A stretch of 64,000 bases of DNA from a virus (taxonomy: Duplodnaviria > Heunggongvirae > Uroviricota > Caudoviricetes), in IMG/VR virus record IMGVR_UViG_3300027747_001395. One strand, written 5' to 3'. Positions 17,671-59,709 of this stretch are shown here, in pieces. Positions within the stretch are counted from its first letter, which is position 1, and each line of letters starts with the position of its first letter. Position numbers and translations under genes: made by a program. The notes below the pieces were generated by a model. It searched no databases. It saw nothing but the letters and a program-made list of their open reading frames with translations, and had not been told where the DNA came from.

Positions 17671-18750
17671 ATGGCCGTTAAGAAATCAGCCGTAAATAAG
17701 TCGTTGGATAAAAAATTTGCTGGTGCTGAACCGATTGTCGAGGAAATTATCGGTCGGCAAGATCCTCAGCTTACAAGAATTTTCAACTGGTATAATTATG
17801 TCTATGGGGTTTCCGATGGAAAGGTCTGGCTTCTCCAGTGGATGAAGCTTGAAAAGTTTGAAAAATCTGCCATCGAAACTATCAAAAAGTCAAACGACGC
17901 TTATATTCCGACTACAATCTGTTGGGTTGCTAAGATGGCACTGAATGGGACTAAATTTGCTCCAGAGAATCTTGATTATGTGCGACGCCGCATTGCTGAT
18001 ATTATAGCTAAATATGGTGAACCAACTGAAGAGGAATCTACCGAGGAAAAAACCAATGTGATCTCAATTCAAGACCGTACTAAGGCTAAACTTGAGCAAA
18101 TCCTCACTATGGCTGAGGAGGAAGTAATTGATAGGCAGTTGCCTATGTATCAATTCCTCCAGAAACATTCTTGTACTCCTGCTGCTGCAAATTATCTGCG
18201 AGCATATTACATCAAGAGCCGTGATGAACTTTTCTCTGATGAATCTCAGGTCAAAGAAGCTTATGGCAAGAACCTAAAGAAGTGGCAAGCATTTTGGCAG
18301 GGTGTAATTGATGATCTTGATCGGTATGTTGGCAACAAGAAAGCCGTTAAAGTCAGGAAAGAACGTGTCCCTAAAGCCAAACCAATCTCTAAGTTGGTTG
18401 AAAAGCTCAACTATCAAAAAGAAGATCCTACACTCAAGATTGTATCGGTCCTCCCACAAGAGCTTATTGGTTCAAAAGAGCTTTGGGTTTATAATACTAA
18501 AGAAAAGAAGTTGACCGTCTTCTATGCAACTGGACCGGCAGGTCTAGGTATTAAAGGTTCAACTCTTATTAACTTTGATGTTGATCAATCGGAGTCAAAG
18601 AGACTCCGTAAACCTGAAGTTACACTTTCAGAACTACTTAAGGCTGGTAAAGTGGCTATTCGAAAGATTATGCCTGCACTTACCACCACATCTGTGAAAC
18701 CTACCGGAAGGATAAATAACATGACAATCCTTCTGAAGGTGATAAAATAA
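17671..18750 (+). CDS. Hypothetical protein (359 aa)
   Basis: ORF with RBS aggaaggttcaaaATG. No recognisable domain. Confidence 0.55.
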   Translation: MAVKKSAVNKSLDKKFAGAEPIVEEIIGRQDPQLTRIFNWYNYVYGVSDGKVWLLQWMKLEKFEKSAIETIKKSNDAYIPTTICWVAKMALNGTKFAPENLDYVRRRIADIIAKYGEPTEEESTEEKTNVISIQDRTKAKLEQILTMAEEEVIDRQLPMYQFLQKHSCTPAAANYLRAYYIKSRDELFSDESQVKEAYGKNLKKWQAFWQGVIDDLDRYVGNKKAVKVRKERVPKAKPISKLVEKLNYQKEDPTLKIVSVLPQELIGSKELWVYNTKEKKLTVFYATGPAGLGIKGSTLINFDVDQSESKRLRKPEVTLSELLKAGKVAIRKIMPALTTTSVKPTGRINNMTILLKVIK

Positions 18751-31597: not shown

Positions 31598-32422
31598 ATG
31601 AAGATTAAACTATTTGCTCTTATTGCTACTTCTGCTCTTGCTCTTGGCGCTTGTTCACAGGTTGAACCAGGTCATGTTGGTATTCGTGTTGATCAATATG
31701 GATCTGGTGCTGGAGTCTCCAAGGACTCACTACCTGTCGGTACTTACTTTACTGGCGTTGGTACTACAATCTATGAATATCCTGTCTTTACTAAGACTTA
31801 TACCTGGACAATTAACAAGACTGAAGATTCTGTTGTTAATGAAGAATTCTCATTTGCTGATAAGAGCGGTTTAACTCTTACTGGTGACGTATCTGTAAGC
31901 TATCACGTGGATGCTACCAAGGCTCCAATTCTGTTTCAAAAGTATCGTATGGACATGGATGCAATTGTCTCGGGACCACTTCGAGTAGCCATCCGCGGTG
32001 CAATTAACAACGAAGCTTCCAAGATGACTGTTGAGGAAATCTACGGTTCACGTAAGGCCGAATTGATTGCTCTAGCTCAGGCTGATGTTCGGAAGTTCTT
32101 CAGTCCATTTGGTCTTGAGGTAGAACGAGTTGAATGGGCTTCACCAGTTCGAGTTCCAGAAACAGTTATGCGTCAGATCAATGCCAAGATTGCTAACGAG
32201 CAACAAGCTCTAGCAGCTCAGGCTAACGTAGCTACCGCTGAAGCTGATGCCCGCGCAAAGGTTGCTAAGGCTGAAGGTGATGCTAAGGCAACTCAGATTG
32301 AAGCTGAGGCTCTAAGATCTAACCCTAAGATTCTTGAGCAGAAGGCAATTGATAAGTGGGATGGACACTTTCCAACTTATATGGGTGGTAATGCACCACT
32401 TCCTTTTCTTAAAGTCGATTAA
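31598..32422 (+). CDS. SPFH/band-7 (prohibitin/HflK-like) lipoprotein
   Basis: Signal peptide plus lipobox LALGAC. SPFH-like core and a C-terminal Ala/Glu-rich coiled coil. Confidence 0.6.
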   Translation: MKIKLFALIATSALALGACSQVEPGHVGIRVDQYGSGAGVSKDSLPVGTYFTGVGTTIYEYPVFTKTYTWTINKTEDSVVNEEFSFADKSGLTLTGDVSVSYHVDATKAPILFQKYRMDMDAIVSGPLRVAIRGAINNEASKMTVEEIYGSRKAELIALAQADVRKFFSPFGLEVERVEWASPVRVPETVMRQINAKIANEQQALAAQANVATAEADARAKVAKAEGDAKATQIEAEALRSNPKILEQKAIDKWDGHFPTYMGGNAPLPFLKVD

Positions 32423-32619: not shown

Positions 32620-32657
32620 AAAAATCTCCTATTTTGTTTTATTTATGCAAAATTCAG

Positions 32658-32735
32658 TTGACATTTTATCAAAAGTGGAATATATATAAACTATGAAGGG
32701 ATAGACCCTTCAATTTTTACTCAAAGGAGTTTTGA
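32658..32735 (+). promoter_or_regulatory. Promoter-family repeat plus leader with GGGATAGACCC hairpin
   Basis: TTGACAttttatcaaaagtggaaTATATAtaaactatgaaGGGATAGACCCttc. Confidence 0.5.
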
Positions 32736-32738
32736 GAA

Positions 32739-33833
32739 ATGACTGACACTAAAGAATTTGATCTACTAGTTTTCATTGGAAGATTCCAACCTTTCCATCT
32801 TGAACATCAGCGTGTCATTGCCACTGCTCTTGAAAAGGCCAAGAATGTTCTTGTGCTTGTGGGCAGTGCCGGCAAGGCTCGAACTGTTCGCAATCCTTTC
32901 ACCTTTGAAGAACGGAAGGATATGATCAATGGCTCATTCGACTGTAACGGTGGGCGGCAATGTCGTATTATCATCAAACCAATCTACGATAAGACCTATA
33001 ACGATGCTGCCTGGATTAAACAGGTTCAAGACGTCGTTAAAGATGCTGCGCTTGATATTCTCAATGATGGTGGTTTCCGGTCTGTCGGTCTAAGCGATGC
33101 TAAGGTGGGTCTGATTGGTGCCTCGAAGGATAATACATCCTACTACTTGAAGTTGTTCCCTCAGTGGTCCTCGGTTAATGTTCCAATCGAACGTGAAATG
33201 CATGCTACGGTTATTCGCGAGCACTTCATTGATGGCACATTTGAGCGACATCTGATGGATAACGTTCTAGTTCCACGAAGTGTGGCTAAGTTTCTCTTCG
33301 AAGACTTTATCCATACTGATTCTTATGCTCAACTTCGCCGAGAGTTAGAACATGTCCGCAAGTACAAGAAGGCCTGGGAAGCGGCACCATATCCTGTTAA
33401 ACATGTCACAGTTGATGCTGTGGTTGAACAGAGTGGACACATTCTACTTGTAAAGCGAAAAGCAGAACCAGGCAAGGGTCTCTGGGCAATTCCTGGCGGG
33501 CATCTTGAGATGGATGAAACCGTCTTGAATGGCATCATCCGTGAACTAAAGGAAGAAACTGGAATCAAGGTTCCTACAGCTGTCTTGCTTGGCTCGATTG
33601 TAGCTCAAAACGTCTTTGATGATCCACATCGTTCGACTATCGGCCGTGTGATTACGCATGCTGCTCACATTCATCTGTCAAGTGAAACAAAGCTACCCAA
33701 GCTAAAAATTCCCAAAGGTGAGCACGGCGAAGACGAAGTTGACAAGGTCAAATGGGTTCCTATTAGTGACCTCCGTGAAGATCAAATGTTTGATGATCAC
33801 TTTCACATCATCAACTATTTTCTGGGAGTTTAA
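32739..33833 (+). CDS. natV: Bifunctional NMN adenylyltransferase / Nudix ADP-ribose pyrophosphatase (KVP40 NatV-like)
   Basis: NMNAT motif LVFIGRFQPFHLEHQ. Nudix box GGHLEMDETVLNGIIRELKEETGI. Confidence 0.8.
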   Translation: MTDTKEFDLLVFIGRFQPFHLEHQRVIATALEKAKNVLVLVGSAGKARTVRNPFTFEERKDMINGSFDCNGGRQCRIIIKPIYDKTYNDAAWIKQVQDVVKDAALDILNDGGFRSVGLSDAKVGLIGASKDNTSYYLKLFPQWSSVNVPIEREMHATVIREHFIDGTFERHLMDNVLVPRSVAKFLFEDFIHTDSYAQLRRELEHVRKYKKAWEAAPYPVKHVTVDAVVEQSGHILLVKRKAEPGKGLWAIPGGHLEMDETVLNGIIRELKEETGIKVPTAVLLGSIVAQNVFDDPHRSTIGRVITHAAHIHLSSETKLPKLKIPKGEHGEDEVDKVKWVPISDLREDQMFDDHFHIINYFLGV

Positions 33834-33835
33834 TC

Positions 33836-34099
33836 ATGGCTACTATTATTGAATACTTTGAGGTTTTAGATGATGATGGATATAACCGTGATGGTCCATC
33901 ATCATCTGCTAGATTTCTGTCACTTATTGCTGCTGAGAAATATGCAGCACTTAATCGAAATAGATATGTGAATAAAACAAAGAAGAAGATTATCATTTAT
34001 GATAGTGCTGAGGAAGTAGATCTACATAAGAGAGAAGATCTTAAACAATCTGCAATTAGTAAACTCACTACAGATGAACGCGTAGCTCTAGGAGTCTAA
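33836..34099 (+). CDS. Hypothetical protein
   Basis: ORF of 87 aa. Confidence 0.45.
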   Translation: MATIIEYFEVLDDDGYNRDGPSSSARFLSLIAAEKYAALNRNRYVNKTKKKIIIYDSAEEVDLHKREDLKQSAISKLTTDERVALGV

Positions 34100-34401
34100 T
34101 GATGAAACCTATTAAACCAAGTGATATAGCCACAGCTAAACAAACTGCAATTCCTGAAGTTGTTATCGAAGTAATTAATAATTTGCTTGCTCTTAAGTTT
34201 TCAAATGGTAGAGCAACAATTTATCAAAAGGATATCGTAAATTCGCTTCTTAAAAATGGCGATATATCAAAAGATGAAATCTTTAATTTAGGTTATCTCA
34301 ATTTTGAAGAGATCTATCGAGAACAAGGTTGGAAAGTAACTTACGATAAGCCTGGCTATGGAGAAAGTTATGATGCATTCTTCGAATTTAAGGTGAAATA
34401 A
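34099..34401 (+). CDS. Hypothetical protein
   Basis: ORF of 100 aa. Confidence 0.45.
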   Translation: MMKPIKPSDIATAKQTAIPEVVIEVINNLLALKFSNGRATIYQKDIVNSLLKNGDISKDEIFNLGYLNFEEIYREQGWKVTYDKPGYGESYDAFFEFKVK

Positions 34402-34403
34402 GA

Positions 34404-34574
34404 TGCGATATGAACTACGAAGATGGACTGATAGTTCAAAGACTGATTATGTAATCAGACAGCTATCAGACGATAGAAATGCTATTGAAGCTCAACTCGA
34501 ACGAGTGCTTAATGCAAGCACAGAACCAAATCTTAACTATATTGTAGATACAGTAGGTGAATATGATGACTGAG
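34404..34574 (+). CDS. Small hypothetical protein (56 aa)
   Basis: RBS aaggtgaaataagATG. Confidence 0.4.
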
Positions 34575-34731
34575 ACTAAACCAAAACGAAATACTTGTTA
34601 TACTATTACTGCTCAAACTCCATTACTTCGACCAGGCCTGAGTATTCAAGTAAATACAAGTGAACGATATGCTGCTGAAGCAGTAGATCTTCTTATGGAA
34701 GTCGTCAGACAAGTTAATAATAAGGACTGAG
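34564..34731 (+). CDS. Small hypothetical protein (55 aa)
   Basis: RBS gtaggtgaatATG. Confidence 0.4.
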
Positions 34732-34734
34732 AAT

Positions 34735-35037
34735 ATGACGATTAAACCTTACTCCATCGGCTCTTCTGAGTGGAATGGTCTTTCAAAAGTAATTGAAGAG
34801 CTAGGTGAGCTTCAGCAAGTCTGCGGTAAGACTATTGGTTCTGGTGGTGATCAAAATCATTGGTCTGGTAATCTTGTTGAGAAGTTTATTGAAGAGATTG
34901 GTGATAGCTATGCAGCACTTGATTTCTTTGTTGACCAGAACTTTAGTAGAGAAGATCAAGCTAGGATCTATAAACAAGCTCATATGAAGTACGAACGATT
35001 CAGACAATGGGATAAAGAAACTAAACAAAACGATTGA
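34735..35037 (+). CDS. MazG-like nucleotide pyrophosphohydrolase
   Basis: EELGELQQVCGK and FIEEIGDSYAAL (EExGE/D metal-binding pairs). Confidence 0.55.
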   Translation: MTIKPYSIGSSEWNGLSKVIEELGELQQVCGKTIGSGGDQNHWSGNLVEKFIEEIGDSYAALDFFVDQNFSREDQARIYKQAHMKYERFRQWDKETKQND

Positions 35038-35060
35038 CATTATCTAGAATTGGTGTATAA
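35024..35060 (+). promoter_or_regulatory. sigma70 promoter (canonical TTGACA-N16-TATAAT)
   Basis: TTGACAttatctagaattggtgTATAATag. Confidence 0.6.
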
Positions 35061-35096
35061 TAGTTATATAGAGATAATGTATTAGGGGTTTGATTT

Positions 35097-35579
35097 ATGT
35101 TACTACATGCTAAAGGTAATCTTATTGATATGGCCGAACAAGGTCTATTCGATGTAATCGTCCACGGATGCAACTGTCAGAATACTATGGGATCTGGTAT
35201 TGCTAAAGAGATTCGTGCTCGATATCCTCAAGCTTATGAAGCCGACTCTGCAATGATCTATACCTATCAGAAGCCCGTATTGAAGCTCGGCAACTTTAGT
35301 GTGGCTGCAGACAATCAAATCGATCCCAAGTTTGAGATCGTAAATGCCTACACTCAGCTTCATTATCTGCCTCGCAGTATAGATCACTTTGACTATGAAT
35401 CGTTCAAATTGATTCTCAGAAAGCTTGAAGTTATTGCACCAGATGCTCGTTTTGGTTTCCCATACATCGGGATGGGCCTTGCTGGTGGCAATTCCAAGCG
35501 TATCTTAGCATTACTAGAAAAATTTGCAGTGGATATTACCGCAACTGGTGGTTCTGCTACACTTGTGGAATTTGGATAA
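35097..35579 (+). CDS. Macro domain protein (ADP-ribose / O-acetyl-ADP-ribose processing)
   Basis: DVIVHGCNCQNTMGSGIAKEI matches the macro-domain ADP-ribose binding loop. Confidence 0.7.
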   Translation: MLLHAKGNLIDMAEQGLFDVIVHGCNCQNTMGSGIAKEIRARYPQAYEADSAMIYTYQKPVLKLGNFSVAADNQIDPKFEIVNAYTQLHYLPRSIDHFDYESFKLILRKLEVIAPDARFGFPYIGMGLAGGNSKRILALLEKFAVDITATGGSATLVEFG

Positions 35580-35584
35580 AAAGG

Positions 35585-35779
35585 ATGCCTTACATGAAAA
35601 TTGTTGTAAATGAAGAAGATATGAAGCCAGACGTTAAAAATAGATGGTTTGATGCCAGGATAAGTGGTGACAATCTTAAAGTTGAAGATTTTTATCTTGG
35701 TGCACATATGCTTAATACAGCTCAAGTTATTGTCTTTGAATCTGCTTATATTTCAGTTAAAAAGATTCTAAAAAAGTAA
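35585..35779 (+). CDS. Hypothetical small protein
   Basis: ORF of 64 aa. Confidence 0.4.
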   Translation: MPYMKIVVNEEDMKPDVKNRWFDARISGDNLKVEDFYLGAHMLNTAQVIVFESAYISVKKILKK

Positions 35780-35788
35780 AAATACCAG

Positions 35789-35870
35789 TTGACATTTTTA
35801 TGAGAATGGTATAGACTAAACATAATGGCAACGGGATAGACCCAAAGCCCAAACGATAGAGGAGTTCTAT
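35789..35870 (+). promoter_or_regulatory. Promoter-family repeat plus leader with GGGATAGACCC
   Basis: TTGACAtttttatgagaatggTATAGACTaaacataatggcaacGGGATAGACCCaaagcc. Confidence 0.5.
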
Positions 35871-35871
35871 T

Positions 35872-37242
35872 ATGAAAAACATTATTTTAAACGCAGACTC
35901 GTACAAGTACAGTCAGTTCAATCAATACCCCGAAGGTACAGAGTACATCTACTCTTACATCGAAAGCCGTGGCGGCAAGTATGATGAAACAGTCTTCTTT
36001 GGTCTTCAGGCTTTCATCAAGGAATACTTGACTGATCCAATTACCATGGACATGATTGATGAAGCTGAGGCTATTATCACAGCTCATGGTGAACCTTTCA
36101 ACCGTGCGGGATGGGAACATATTCTCAATGCACATGACGGCTACCTGCCTGTTACTATCAAGGCAGTTCCTGAAGGTACGGTTGTTCCTGTCAAGAACAT
36201 TCTTGCTTCGATTGTCAACATGGACCCAGAATGCTACTGGTTGACTTCGTTTCTTGAGACTGCATTGCTTCGAGCAATTTGGTATCCTACAACTGTGGCT
36301 ACTAACAGCCGTGAAATTAAGAAGGTGATCCTTGATGCACTTGAACGAACAGGCACTCCAGCTGACATTAATTTTAAGCTTCATGACTTCGGTGCTCGTG
36401 GGGTCAGTAGTCTTGAGTCTGCCGGGATCGGCGGCGCAGCACATCTTGTCAACTTCATGGGTACGGATACTGTTGAAGCTTTACTTTTTGCTCGCAGGTA
36501 TTACAGTGCTGACATGGCTGGTTTTAGCGTTCCTGCAATGGAGCACTCAACTGTAACAAGCTGGGGTCGAGAAGGTGAGGTTGCTTCTTACCGGAACATG
36601 GTTAAGAAGAATGGTAAGCCTGGTGGTATTGTTTCGGCCGTCTCTGACAGCTATGATATCTACGAAGCTTGCCGTCTCTGGGGTACAGAACTCAAGCAGG
36701 ACATTATCGACTCGGGTGCTAAGCTTGTAGTTCGTCCTGACTCGGGTGATCCAGCTGAGGTTGTAACTAAGTGTCTTCGAATTCTTGATCAGTACTTTGG
36801 TAGTACAATTAATGAGAAGGGCTACAAGGTTCTTAACAACGTTGGTGTTCTTCAGGGTGATGGTATTACGATTGATTCGATTAAAGACATCTTGCGATGG
36901 TCTGAAGCTGCTGGTTTCAGTGCTGACAATCTTGTCTTTGGTCAGGGTGGTGCTCTTCTTCAGATCGTAAACCGAGATGACCAGAAGTTTGCCATGAAGA
37001 CTAGCGCTGCTTTCATCAAGGATAAGGGCTGGGTTGACGTGTTCAAAGATCCAATTACCGATCCTGGTAAGAAGTCTAAGAAGGGTATGCTGAAGCTTAT
37101 CCGTACTGAAAGTGGTGAATACAATACTACTCGAGATACGGCAGCAATGTCTTATCCTGATGTTCTTGAAGTTGTATTCTCGATGGGCAAGCTTATTCGT
37201 GATCAAAACTTTGCAGATATCCGTGCTAGGGCAGAAATTTAA
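35872..37242 (+). CDS. nadV: Nicotinamide phosphoribosyltransferase (NAMPT / NadV)
   Basis: 456 aa. N-terminal ILNADSYKYSQF and overall NAMPT-family architecture. Confidence 0.85.
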   Translation: MKNIILNADSYKYSQFNQYPEGTEYIYSYIESRGGKYDETVFFGLQAFIKEYLTDPITMDMIDEAEAIITAHGEPFNRAGWEHILNAHDGYLPVTIKAVPEGTVVPVKNILASIVNMDPECYWLTSFLETALLRAIWYPTTVATNSREIKKVILDALERTGTPADINFKLHDFGARGVSSLESAGIGGAAHLVNFMGTDTVEALLFARRYYSADMAGFSVPAMEHSTVTSWGREGEVASYRNMVKKNGKPGGIVSAVSDSYDIYEACRLWGTELKQDIIDSGAKLVVRPDSGDPAEVVTKCLRILDQYFGSTINEKGYKVLNNVGVLQGDGITIDSIKDILRWSEAAGFSADNLVFGQGGALLQIVNRDDQKFAMKTSAAFIKDKGWVDVFKDPITDPGKKSKKGMLKLIRTESGEYNTTRDTAAMSYPDVLEVVFSMGKLIRDQNFADIRARAEI

Positions 37243-58920: not shown

Positions 58921-59067
58921 ATGTTTTCCGCCATCTCCACCAGTAGTTATGAGGCGCCGAAAGAGGCTAGATGTTGCTTACTCATAACTACTGATGGGGA
59001 TGAAACAGGCTCGATTTTCGTGAACTTCTTCATAAAAGACAATATAAATAAGATATTGGTTGCTTGA
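58921..59067 (+). CDS. Small ORF (48 aa) overlapping a duplicated structured element
   Basis: ATG after the leader. The body is the first copy of a 98-nt element repeated at 59106-59203, so it may be non-coding RNA instead. Confidence 0.3.
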   Translation: MFSAISTSSYEAPKEARCCLLITTDGDETGSIFVNFFIKDNINKILVA

Positions 59068-59105
59068 AAGCTGACAATAAAGACGGAAAGACGCGGGGGC
59101 AGTAC

Positions 59106-59203
59106 CCGCCATCTCCACCAGTAGTTATGAGGCGCCGAAAGAGGCTAGATGTTGCTTACTCATAACTACTGATGGGGATGAAACAGGCTCGATTTTCGTG
59201 GAA
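59106..59203 (+). repeat. Second copy of 98-nt direct repeat (first copy 58927-59024)
   Basis: Near-identical ccgccatctccaccagtagttatgaggcgccgaaagaggctagatgttgcttactcataactactgatggggatgaaacaggctcgattttcgtg. Contains a 13-bp inverted repeat cagtagttatgag/ctcataactactg. Confidence 0.7.
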
Positions 59204-59709
59204 TAGGGATATTGCTTAGACTGATTCGGTGGCTGAGCGGCCAAAACAAACTAAATGTCGCATCTAATGATAACGATATTGTTGATTACGCACTAGCTGC
59301 CTAATTTAACATGGGTTTGGTGGGTACCTTGAAACAGAAACCCACCACTTAGATGAGTGCTGGTCTTGATCGGCAAATAAGCAGGAAGAGGAGAGCGCAC
59401 CTCTCCGATGGATATCCGACATTAGATCGGCAAACTCGACCCAACCAGCATTCTTCTAAGTTCTATTTTGTCTATCTACTAAGTAAGCCCTTCTCTTAGG
59501 GGGAGCCGAAAGGTCCTAGACAACGGGTTCGGTGGTACCTTTGAACAGAAATCCACCACTTAGATGAATCCATTGGTTACCATGGTCGGAGCTGAACATG
59601 GTGTAATTTAGTTCTCCGAAATTCCAGTGGGTTCATCTAAGTTTGTGTATAAATAGTCTGTCCACTGTCTCAGGACTAAGGACTGATACACATACACAAA
59701 GGAATTACT

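Follow-up and report, generated by a model that had tools for sequence, protein, structure and literature searches.

The window (i.e., the whole 64 kb stretch of phage DNA that was analysed) carries two open reading frames that, judged by their predicted domains, fit NAD-salvage enzymes: NatV/NadM (of the type combining NMN adenylyltransferase with a Nudix ADP-ribose pyrophosphatase) and NadV (nicotinamide phosphoribosyltransferase; see Table 1). A megablast search of the region against deposited phages returned no close relative. Both genes have a putative promoter with a TTGACA element. As the -10 of natV fails a strict consensus scan (its last base is A), we infer its promoter and a transcription start at approximately 32693–32695, while the nadV transcript would start at approximately 35824. 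Between the TTGACA element and the Shine-Dalgarno sequence (SD) and ATG of each gene lies the same 11-mer, GGGATAGACCC (32698–32708 and 35833–35843, both on the + strand).

Table 1. Features of the natV and nadV leaders and genes in the window. H1, first hairpin; H2, second hairpin.
Feature	Position	Strand	Description
natV promoter-like region	32658..32686	+	Perfect -35 TTGACA (32658–32663), 17-nt spacer, AT-rich -10 TATATA (approximately 32681–32686)
natV full covariance-model match (H1, linker, H2, AUG)	32691..32741	+	46.7 bits, E ~1e-9; sequence is part of the seed alignment
natV H1	32694..32712	+	7-bp stem UGAAGGG/CCCUUCA, pentaloop AUAGA (32701–32705); includes the 11-mer
natV H2	32720..32736	+	6-bp stem CUCAAA/UUUGAG, SD GGAGU in loop (32726–32730); AUG at 32739; from fold and H2 covariation
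natV/nadM coding sequence	32739..33833	+	PF01467 cytidylyltransferase-like and PF00293 NUDIX
nadV promoter	35789..35817	+	TTGACA, 17 nt, TAGACT
nadV full covariance-model match	35826..35874	+	38.2 bits, E ~2e-7; sequence is part of the seed alignment
nadV H1	35827..35849	+	Outer GGC/GCC (35827–35829 with 35847–35849), A-rich internal loop, inner GGG/CCC (35833–35835 with 35841–35843), pentaloop AUAGA (35836–35840); includes the 11-mer
nadV H2	35855..35871	+	Stem GAUAGA/UCUAUU, SD GGAGU in loop (35861–35865); AUG at 35872; from fold and H2 covariation
nadV coding sequence	35872..37242	+	PF18127 NAMPT_N and PF04095 NAPRTase

A preliminary description of this DNA had placed the 11-mer between promoter and ribosome-binding site (RBS), which is where both copies lie, and had called for a genome-wide search. 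Within the window GGGATAGACCC was confined to the natV and nadV leaders, with no third match on either strand at up to one mismatch. Taken by itself, the pair is only mildly unusual in the window: 0.37 matches are expected, and 7 of 100 shuffles contained at least two matches at up to one mismatch. The element was also correctly said to be missing from the short general leader (TAGACTAAACTATAAGGAATGGAGAT..ATG), which we found at approximately 14–17 other window genes. The proposed GGG-loop-CCC mini-hairpin proved real but larger than described (7 bp in natV; 3 bp, an A-rich internal loop and another 3 bp in nadV). Similarly, the 11-mer is indeed the same in both leaders, but what is conserved is G-AUAGA-C together with a second hairpin: relatives do not keep the additional G-C pairs to which the 11-mer owes its identity in the two leaders, and only L002, L012 and L031 among them carry it exactly. 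The second, SD-loop hairpin and the wide spread in phages and bacteria were absent from that description. The minimum free energy (MFE) structure of both window leaders consists of H1 and H2 (whole-leader folds of -14.1 and -10.8 kcal/mol), and for natV H1 the MFE and centroid folds agree.

A two-hairpin leader of NAD-salvage genes

By sequence comparison, the 11-mer is the apex of H1 in a conserved two-hairpin mRNA leader that precedes NAD-salvage genes and is common to approximately 170 distinct leaders from relatives. H1 combines a variable, covarying stem with a conserved and usually G-C closed pentaloop, A-N-A-G-A; H2 is a second covarying hairpin with the SD (GGAG) in its loop or partly paired beside it, followed by the AUG. 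The element, approximately 50 nt in all, is always found in the coding orientation, and its spacing to the SD is fixed: the median distance from the H1 loop to GGAG is 23 nt (IQR 22–24; n = 169), and the start codon follows 5–11 nt past GGAG. When 49 phage sequences were aligned on the loop without gaps, 81.6% of H1 positions were paired (48% in shuffles) with a covariation score of 0.81, compared to 0.20 in shuffles and at most 0.16 in slid registers. The corresponding figures were 87.5% vs. 55% and 0.76 vs. 0.18 for H1 in 57 bacterial sequences, with many G.U pairs, and 86% vs. 53% and 0.83 vs. 0.18 for H2. In GC-rich bacteria H2 pairs part of the SD (GAAG-GAG-CUUC), whereas in AT-rich phage versions, the window included, it is weak and leaves GGAG in the loop. 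Searching Rfam 15 at both gathering and permissive E-value thresholds gave no relevant match for the window leaders, bacterial loci or variant loci, and literature searches that took in three ncRNA catalogues revealed nothing relevant on a nadV/nadM riboswitch, an RNA motif or the sequence string.

We found the leader upstream of nadV and natV in IMG/VR phages and in the cultured phages Synechococcus B23 and BUCT-ZZ01, Xanthomonas LucasX and roseophage DSS3_MAL1, as well as upstream of chromosomal nadM and nadV in Alpha-, Beta- and Gammaproteobacteria and Cyanobacteria. Its range covers cyanophages, jumbo phages and the chromosomal nadM-nadV operons of Xanthomonadales, Burkholderiales, Caulobacter and cyanobacteria. 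Each cistron has a copy of its own, including in the 60-nt natV-nadV intergenic region of LucasX and in bacterial nadM-nadV spacers. H1 was absent from the KVP40-like Vibrio phage D527, Cronobacter leB, Caulobacter CcrBL10, Acidovorax ACP17, Rhizobium RHph_X66 and Myxococcus Mx1. Given that no third conserved neighbour gene (i.e., a regulator candidate) was found near 80 bacterial loci, the NAD-salvage module is self-contained.

The element is also specific to these genes. In the window the covariance model matched only natV and nadV (the next-best match scored 12.4 bits; compare Table 1), in keeping with the earlier suggestion that the element is dedicated to the two pathway partners. A permissive search for hairpins with an ATAGA loop and a stem of 4 bp or more yielded mostly background and did not recover nadV, whose stem has 3 bp; it gave way to the covariance model and a strict hairpin scan. 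The former gave 75 matches (E < 0.01) in 45 IMG/VR loci, all of them nadV/natV leaders except for three before adjacent small ORFs; in the latter, 29 of 30 ANAGA hairpins were NAD-gene leaders, while control loops gave 2–10 hairpins. In an unanchored pattern scan of IMG/VR, natV or nadV came next after 20 matches but not after 44 stemless chance matches, the one exception among real-stem matches with a readable downstream ORF being a weak match (L246). The motif occasionally precedes pnuC (PF04973; locus L067) or nadA (PF02445), and scans for further phage pnuC and nadA loci returned almost exclusively contigs that had already been found. The small ORFs behind the extra motif copies come from families that are unrelated and have no known function.

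Loop variants and a proposed translational operator

Rare variants of the H1 loop (GUUGA, ANGGA, AAGA and C-AGAGA-G) usually fall into the same class in both leaders of one genome. Matched pairs were GUUGA in Variovorax, GANGU in L062 and L077, ANGGA in RSP15, AAGA in BcepSauron and C-AGAGA-G in the clade carrying that loop; Caulobacter, with GGAGA on nadM and ACAGA on nadV, is an example of a discordant genome. Overall, we found 12 concordant non-majority loop pairs, a number reached by none of 20,000 permutations, which ignore phylogeny. Such matching of rare variants between the two leaders of a genome suggests a partner that co-evolves with the loop, although a ligand change common to both leaders, or leaders spreading within a genome, could also produce it.

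We hypothesised that the leader is a translational operator of the NAD-salvage module with a trans-acting candidate partner at the H1 loop, a reading to which we give slightly less than even confidence; operation by a protein is more likely than a riboswitch. The leader probably sets the amount of NadV and NatV/NadM translated, and control at the level of translation is favoured by the copy on each cistron and by the SD inside H2. Specifically, the partner would recognise the H1 loop, and the fixed geometry of H1 and H2 would let it, once bound, stabilise or open the SD hairpin; production of NadV and NatV/NadM (in some genomes also of PnuC and NadA) would thereby be coordinated according to NAD status. 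Proposals for the partner and the signal are speculative. The partner would most likely be a protein co-evolving with the loop, with the module's own enzymes as prime suspects, i.e., NatV/NadM, with its ADP-ribose-binding Nudix domain, or NadV, acting in the manner of NadR or NrtR but at the RNA level. The copy on each cistron, the within-genome loop matching and the lack of a linked regulator gene lend indirect support to an autoregulatory operator. The case for NatV as the universal partner is weakened by L042 and L043, which carry the motif on nadV with no natV within the fetched flank, and repression by SD sequestration is not obvious in the window, given its weak, AT-rich H2 with GGAG in the loop. 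Two observations count against an operator: the regulon of nadV, nadM, pnuC and nadA has the pathway-wide shape typical of riboswitches, and the canonical loop is kept across phyla, as in ligand-binding RNAs.

Known autoregulatory operators (lambda/P22 N-boxB, T4 gp43 and RegA, thrS, r-protein leaders and PyrR sites) resemble the NAD leader in being short hairpins with a sequence-specific loop and a stem whose identity is irrelevant, in having loop variants that co-evolve with a partner (a putative one for the NAD leader), and in lying beside or overlapping the RBS of the regulated gene. By contrast, boxB comes with boxA and an antitermination context, which the NAD leader lacks, and the H1 loop is not GNRA-like since its first base is A. 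C-AGAGA-G resembles a PyrR site, but the Rfam PyrR-site model did not match the C-AGAGA-G loci.

Alternative explanations

The element could be explained in several other ways. That the 11-mer is a chance repeat can practically be discounted: the shuffled windows would allow for it, but it is refuted by the leaders of relatives, their covariation and the IMG/VR and bacterial matches. We also find it improbable that a general RNA-binding regulator or an sRNA of the host targets the leader, for example a CsrA/RsmA-like dimer bridging two loops, one of them with the SD. The A-A-GGA-G displayed by the H2 loop is CsrA-like in its sequence and its place in a hairpin loop, H1 of RSP15 and L072 has ANGGA, and the two candidate sites are a fixed distance apart; dual-site CsrA/RsmA targets likewise have two hairpin loops, the downstream one with the GGA of the SD. 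In such targets, however, both loops contain GGA, whereas the canonical H1 loop has AGA (ANAGA in approximately 170 leaders) and ANGGA is limited to RSP15 and L072-type variants. Moreover, the motif is gene-specific rather than global and occurs in cyanobacterial genomes and cyanophages, and to our knowledge cyanobacteria lack CsrA. We give equally little credence to a constitutive structural element without sensing (i.e., an mRNA stabiliser, RBS insulator, processing site or, in the window, a transcription attenuator). In the window H1 does start no more than approximately 3 nt from where both transcripts are predicted to begin, and in natV it is followed by AUUUUU, which was flagged as terminator-like. 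Against this, the U-run is absent in nadV and not conserved in relatives of natV, the motif is found between cistrons as well as at 5' ends and is restricted to NAD genes, and a purely structural hairpin would not need a loop conserved across phyla. Two further candidates were rejected: a mini-ORF with the loop UAG as stop (neither its frame nor its start is conserved, and UAG is missing from the loops ACAGA, AAAGA and AGAGA) and an anticodon-loop mimic (NAG; there is an A instead of a U at position 33).

We regard it as very improbable that the element is a duplex DNA operator of NrtR, NadR or NiaR, or a sigma70 -10-like pause element, even though it adjoins promoters of NAD genes and GATAGAC is similar to the phage's own -10 (tGGTATAGACTaaa). 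Because the stems covary strongly and with G.U pairs, the element is RNA: of the two possibilities raised in the preliminary description, the RNA-level hairpin was borne out and the NrtR/NadR-like operator was not. Specifically, the conserved centre ATAGA is asymmetric, the arms vary with compensatory and G.U changes, and the element occurs only on the coding strand, locked to the SD. NrtR binds 21-bp palindromes built around a conserved GT-N7-AC core, and the NadR box is TGTTTA-N6-TAAACA (PMC2330246); neither is present at the leaders, and a NadR box scan of the window at up to 3 mismatches gave 63 matches vs. 64 expected, none of them in 32640–32740 or 35780–35875. The pause element was rejected as the final T of the hexamer is not conserved (TAGACC, TAGACA and TAGAAG occur). 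There is nonetheless a likeness in gene set, with NrtR acting on Synechocystis nadM-nadV and Shewanella prs-nadV and NadR on nadA/pnuC, and in the origin of NrtR and NadR from Nudix or NMNAT enzymes, like the suspects proposed for the leader (PMC2330246); the logic of a pathway-level NAD or ADP-ribose (ADPR) signal is probably the same. The difference is that these proteins bind palindromic double-stranded DNA, whereas the NAD leader forms a hairpin in RNA whose conserved loop is asymmetric. Taxa that carry the leader (Xanthomonadales, Burkholderiales and others) are absent from the NrtR regulon tables of the same study (PMC2330246).

Finally, the leader RNA may itself bind a pathway metabolite (NAD+, NMN, nicotinamide, ADP-ribose or PRPP) that fixes the arrangement of H1 and H2 and so alters SD accessibility, which would make it a third NAD-related riboswitch class; we consider this possible but doubtful. 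The leader has the generic hallmark of a riboswitch, being a conserved structured RNA in the 5' UTRs of functionally related genes across taxa: it precedes several NAD genes (nadV, nadM, pnuC and nadA) across phyla and also in phages, no regulator gene is linked to it, its H1-H2 spacing is tight, and it appears to serve hosts as unlike as cyanobacteria and proteobacteria. Its two-hairpin plan with conserved loops recalls guanidine-II (mini-ykkC), in which tandem hairpins have variable covarying stems, conservation essentially confined to the loops, and an SD within or close to the second hairpin. The mini-ykkC loops, however, are two identical ACGR kissing loops joined by a linker of variable length, whereas those of the NAD leader (ANAGA and GGAGU) differ, are non-complementary and lie a fixed distance apart. 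By sequence inspection, no consistent pseudoknot partner was found in phage and bacterial leaders, and a pseudoknot between the H1 loop and the 3' arm of H2 (AUAGA:UCUAU) fits some phage nadV leaders but not natV or bacterial ones. Furthermore, conservation outside the SD extends to approximately 4 loop nucleotides and the closing pair, with no conserved bulges or internal loops for a pocket, and lineage-specific loop versions matched within genomes are unusual for a ligand pocket. Two known classes, NAD+-I and NAD+-II, control nadA and pnuC (PMC6859854; PMC8632094), and like the NAD leader they are cis-acting 5' leader RNAs of NAD-metabolism genes, acting on the SD or a terminator. However, NAD+-I consists of tandem bulged-stem domains and NAD+-II of a stem, an internal bulge and an RBS pseudoknot, as opposed to two simple hairpins, and the main targets of the NAD leader are nadV and nadM. 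The Rfam model of NAD+-I (nadA motif) gave no match at E ≤ 10 on the window leaders or at E ≤ 1–5 on bacterial and variant loci, nor did that of NAD+-II (pnuC motif) on the window leaders or the bacterial and variant loci, including the pnuC locus L067.

Relation to phage counter-defence

Together, NadV and NatV make up NARP2, by which phages restore NAD+ and overcome immune systems that deplete it, at the cost of consuming PRPP and over-producing NAD+; the KVP40 operon was toxic when cloned in E. coli (bioRxiv 10.1101/2024.02.11.579819). This cost provides a rationale for control, and regulation of NARP2 is described neither in that study (bioRxiv 10.1101/2024.02.11.579819) nor in the literature we searched. 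We tentatively propose, as a possibility on the unlikely side, that the leader is a sensor of NAD status for on-demand NAD+ reconstitution, either as a tiny third class of NAD-pathway riboswitch or as an RNA-level counterpart of NrtR. In the latter case, NatV/NadM (an ADP-ribose-binding Nudix protein) or NadV would repress its own and its partners' mRNAs and be released by ADPR, nicotinamide (Nam) or low NAD+. Were the sensor reading true, expression of the NARP2 counter-defence in phages would be coupled to the firing of host NADase defence (Thoeris, DSR, SIR2-HerA). The leader would represent a new riboswitch candidate or, alternatively, a new feedback pair of enzyme and RNA, and may fill a gap in NAD regulation in taxa outside the NrtR, NadR and NiaR regulon papers that we consulted. 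It also gives a concrete handle of approximately 50 nt on the control of the NAD-salvage module, and its covariance model provides a specific marker for annotating such modules in metagenomes.

A two-hairpin leader before natV and nadV

As the preliminary description had reported, an exact search found the 11-mer GGGATAGACCC in the window only in the leaders of two genes, with no further copy on either strand at up to one mismatch. The genes are also the ones it had named: the first encodes a cytidylyltransferase-like NMNAT domain and a NUDIX domain (NatV/NadM type), and the second NAMPT_N and NAPRTase domains (NadV). Both copies lie, as described, between a TTGACA promoter element and the Shine-Dalgarno sequence (SD), and the element is separate from the general early leader of the window (TAGACT-AAACTATAAGGAATGGAGAT-ATG, about 14–17 copies), which lacks this insert. 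Within the window the statistic for the repeated 11-mer is weak: 0.37 matches are expected by chance, and two or more copies turned up in 7 of 100 shuffles.

The real feature is bigger, and much more widely distributed, than was first suspected. We found no close relatives among deposited phages; IMG/VR has numerous contigs whose NadV is 61–85% identical. The 11-mer itself is rarely kept in the nadV or natV leaders of relatives (only in loci L002, L012 and L031), and nearly all of them carry at the same position a hairpin, here called H1, with the loop (G)ATAGA(C) and arms that differ but remain complementary (e.g., CTAGTT-GATAGAC-AACTAG, CTGAC-TGATAGACA-GTCAG or GTAGAAA-GATAGAC-TTTCTA). H1-type hairpins persist even in homologues that are only 34–39% identical. 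Downstream of H1 lies a second hairpin, H2, with GGAG(U) in its loop and the start codon 5–11 nt past GGAG. Minimum free energy and centroid folds of both window leaders consist of exactly H1 and H2; the originally described GGG/CCC mini-hairpin holds as a hairpin, in the folds and in relatives, and falls short in extent. natV H1, which a U-run follows, was flagged as terminator-like; relatives do not keep the U-run, so attenuation, if there is any, would be peculiar to this phage.

The canonical H1 loop has invariant A, A, G and A at positions 1, 3, 4 and 5; any base (U, C, A or G) can stand at position 2, where the two leaders of a genome often disagree. All bacterial H1 hairpins and most phage ones are closed by a G-C pair. 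Although stems and linkers vary, the H1 loop lies at a nearly constant distance from GGAG (median 23 nt, IQR 22–24, n = 169). Both leaders of Burkholderia phage BcepSauron carry an AAGA tetraloop, i.e., A-N-A-G-A minus the free position, which suggests an extruded N. A highly repetitive early promoter and leader cassette (gTTGACAttttt..N..tGGTAGACTAAACTATAAGGAATGGAGATcaacATG; about 25 window sites) has a -10 element, TAGACT, similar to the H1 loop region GATAGAC.

Coordinates of the leaders and associated features, in the window unless a relative's locus (L-number) is given
Feature	Position	Strand	Details
11-mer, natV leader	32698-32708	+	
11-mer, nadV leader	35833-35843	+	
natV ORF	32739-33833		
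nadV ORF	35872-37242		
natV leader fold, H1	32694-32712	+	7-bp stem; whole leader -14.1 kcal/mol
nadV leader fold, H1	35827-35849	+	3+3 bp round A-rich internal loop; whole leader -10.8 kcal/mol
natV H1 and U-run	32694-32720	+	AUUUUU
Early cassette, example sites	23468, 25090, 25868, 38727, 43739, 44774, 50144		
H2-less hairpin	18590-18608	+	CGGAGUC-AAAGA-GACUCCG
SPFH/Band-7 gene	31598-32422	+	prohibitin-like
100-aa ORF	34735-35037	+	phrog_25433
Macro-domain-like ORF	35097-35579	+	Pfam Macro E=6e-4; phrog_335 'phosphatase' E=2e-42
Its promoter	35034-35061		
Its leader hairpin	~35063-35078		GUUAU-AUAGAG-AUAAU
tRNA genes (~26)	37732-60361	+	
tmRNA gene	59025-59349	+	89.8 bits to RF01849; 75.3 bits to RF04321
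Small ORF	L025:3740-4069		109 aa; phrog_12218
Small ORF	L043:1789-2046		85 aa; no family
Small ORF	L044:4019-4429		136 aa; phrog_33851
nadV leader, tandem hairpins	L148:2426-2500		

Covariation, specificity and distribution

Covariation was scored on ungapped alignments that were anchored by the loop only and fitted to no structure. In phage H1 (49 sequences), 81.6% of cells were paired compared with 48.0% in shuffles, the covariation score was 0.81 compared with 0.20 (no slid register exceeded 0.16), and double changes occurred at all 8 pairs. H2 (40 sequences) gave 86.1% vs. 53.0% paired and a score of 0.83 vs. 0.18, and bacterial H1 (57 sequences), where G.U and U.G pairs were frequent, 87.5% vs. 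55.2% and 0.76 vs. 0.18. An asymmetric conserved loop, compensating variable arms, wobble pairs and a fixed strand and spacing to the SD identify an RNA hairpin, which bears out the RNA-level option of the preliminary description; a palindromic DNA operator for a protein would show the reverse pattern. The other option it had offered, a DNA operator for NrtR or NadR, proved wrong and is excluded, as neither consensus site fits the leaders.

The suggestion of a dedicated co-regulatory site was also right. A covariance model spanning H1, linker, H2 and AUG (R1) matched the natV and nadV leaders alone in the window (46.7 and 38.2 bits). The next best match (12.4 bits) was a hairpin with an ANAGA-type loop and no H2, which is within chance expectation for a strict hairpin scan. 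Across 567 kb of related viral loci, R1 gave 75 matches (E <0.01), all but three of them natV or nadV leaders; those three precede small ORFs that immediately adjoin natV or nadV on the 5' side (L025, L043 and L044), mutually unrelated and each with its own motif copy, which are possibly extra members of the NAD module. The strict scan returned 30 hairpins with ANAGA loops, 29 of them these leaders, compared with 2–10 for control loops. An unanchored pattern scan of IMG/VR (GGATAGACC..AAGGAGTT) gave 20 matches followed by natV or nadV, 44 stemless matches attributable to chance, and two other stem-bearing matches (one natV-like in appearance and cut by a contig end, one weak).

The motif precedes both genes in Synechococcus phages B23 and BUCT-ZZ01, Xanthomonas jumbo phage LucasX (where it occupies the 60-nt spacer between natV and nadV) and roseophage DSS3_MAL1; it is missing in KVP40-like Vibrio phage D527, Cronobacter leB, Caulobacter CcrBL10, ACP17, RHph_X66 and Mx1. 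Nor is it confined to phages: a scan of one genome per species found it before chromosomal nadV, and also before the nadM-Nudix gene upstream of nadV, in many Gammaproteobacteria (Xanthomonadales/Lysobacteraceae, Cellvibrionaceae, Microbulbifer, Thiothrix, Alcanivorax, Neptuniibacter), Betaproteobacteria (Burkholderia, Paraburkholderia, Ralstonia), Alphaproteobacteria (Caulobacter, Rhodospirillales, Aestuariispira) and one cyanobacterium. In bacterial leaders the stems are GC-rich, and some of the SD is base-paired within H2 (GAAG-GAG-CUUC, UAGAG-GAG-CUCUA). Further genes with the motif encode the PnuC transporter (L067/L068; PF04973, E=7e-46) and quinolinate synthase NadA (L080; PF02445, E=1e-83; weaker in L288).

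No Rfam 15 family matched window, bacterial or variant leaders, nor did the NAD+-I, NAD+-II and PyrR-site models. Searches for nadV or nadM with riboswitch or RNA motif, and for the sequence string, returned nothing in freely accessible full-text literature; the motif was not found in three large ncRNA catalogues (PMC5737381, PMC8632094, PMC11109978), nor was anything on it in the paper describing NARP2, the NAD+-rebuilding counter-defence pathway. Within these sources the motif appears undescribed. The RNA family is new, its general type well known (a cis-regulatory leader, here probably controlling translation), and its interest is high because it offers a testable control point for NARP2 and for bacterial nicotinamide salvage.

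Loop classes and candidate effectors

Loop-agnostic, energy-based extraction uncovered additional loop classes: GUUGA in Variovorax (seven genomes, five of them with it on both leaders), GANGU in L062 and L077, ANGGA in Ralstonia phage RSP15, and C-AGAGA-G in a phage clade (including all three leaders of L067). Both leaders share one class in 69 of the 82 genomes in which both were classified, and the 12 concordant non-majority pairs were reached by 0 of 20,000 permutations, which do not correct for phylogeny and cover about six independent classes. The nadV leader of an uncultured gammaproteobacterium (L148) carries two tandem hairpins, a GUUGA-loop one (UGGGCCGCG-GUUGA-CGCGGCCCA) followed by a canonical ACAGA-loop H1.

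Our results show that the leader is a structured RNA, dedicated to NAD-metabolism cistrons and geometrically locked to the SD. We infer that it acts on translation, since each cistron has its own copy, also inside operons, and the SD lies within H2. As effector we tentatively favour a trans-acting protein that would co-evolve with the H1 loop, given that so few nucleotides are conserved, that there are neither conserved bulges nor a pseudoknot partner, and that several lineage-specific loop versions are matched within genomes, as in N-boxB pairs or coat-protein operators. The prime suspects would be the module's own enzymes: NatV/NadM combines an NMNAT with an ADPR-binding Nudix domain, and the known NAD regulators NadR and NrtR likewise consist of NMNAT and Nudix domains (PMC2330246).

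The main rival is a riboswitch, which we consider possible but less likely; the gene set (nadV, nadM, pnuC, nadA), conservation across phyla and the lack of any linked regulator found would all fit it. Riboswitches with two hairpins and conserved loops exist. No third gene conserved beside the bacterial modules was found. A CsrA-type general host regulator is improbable, given that the motif is restricted to particular genes and that GGA is absent from canonical H1, and a purely structural role, which would leave the conserved loop unexplained, is less likely. A chance repeat of the 11-mer is excluded.

Neighbouring genes and other features of the window

Between natV and nadV lies a macro-domain-like ORF, syntenic in 28 related loci, which is probably a third module member with a link to ADP-ribose. 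The AU-rich hairpin in its leader is not scored by the covariance model. A 100-aa ORF weakly resembles a MazG-like NTP pyrophosphohydrolase family (phrog_4856), with homologues between natV and nadV in 9 related loci. Just 5' of natV is an SPFH/Band-7 gene with homologues in L026 and L036-L038; a prohibitin-family gene also adjoins nadV in Rhizobium phage RHph_X66 (L056).

In many relatives (e.g., L006, L015, L020-L022 and L029) the natV -10 region directly 5' of H1 reads TATAAATA, the T4 late-promoter consensus, so that natV may have both early and late transcription. The general early promoter repeat precedes each block of the tRNA genes, which are scattered among small ORFs. The window also encodes a permuted, two-piece alpha-type tmRNA, an unusual cargo for a phage-like region that may hint at the host lineage.
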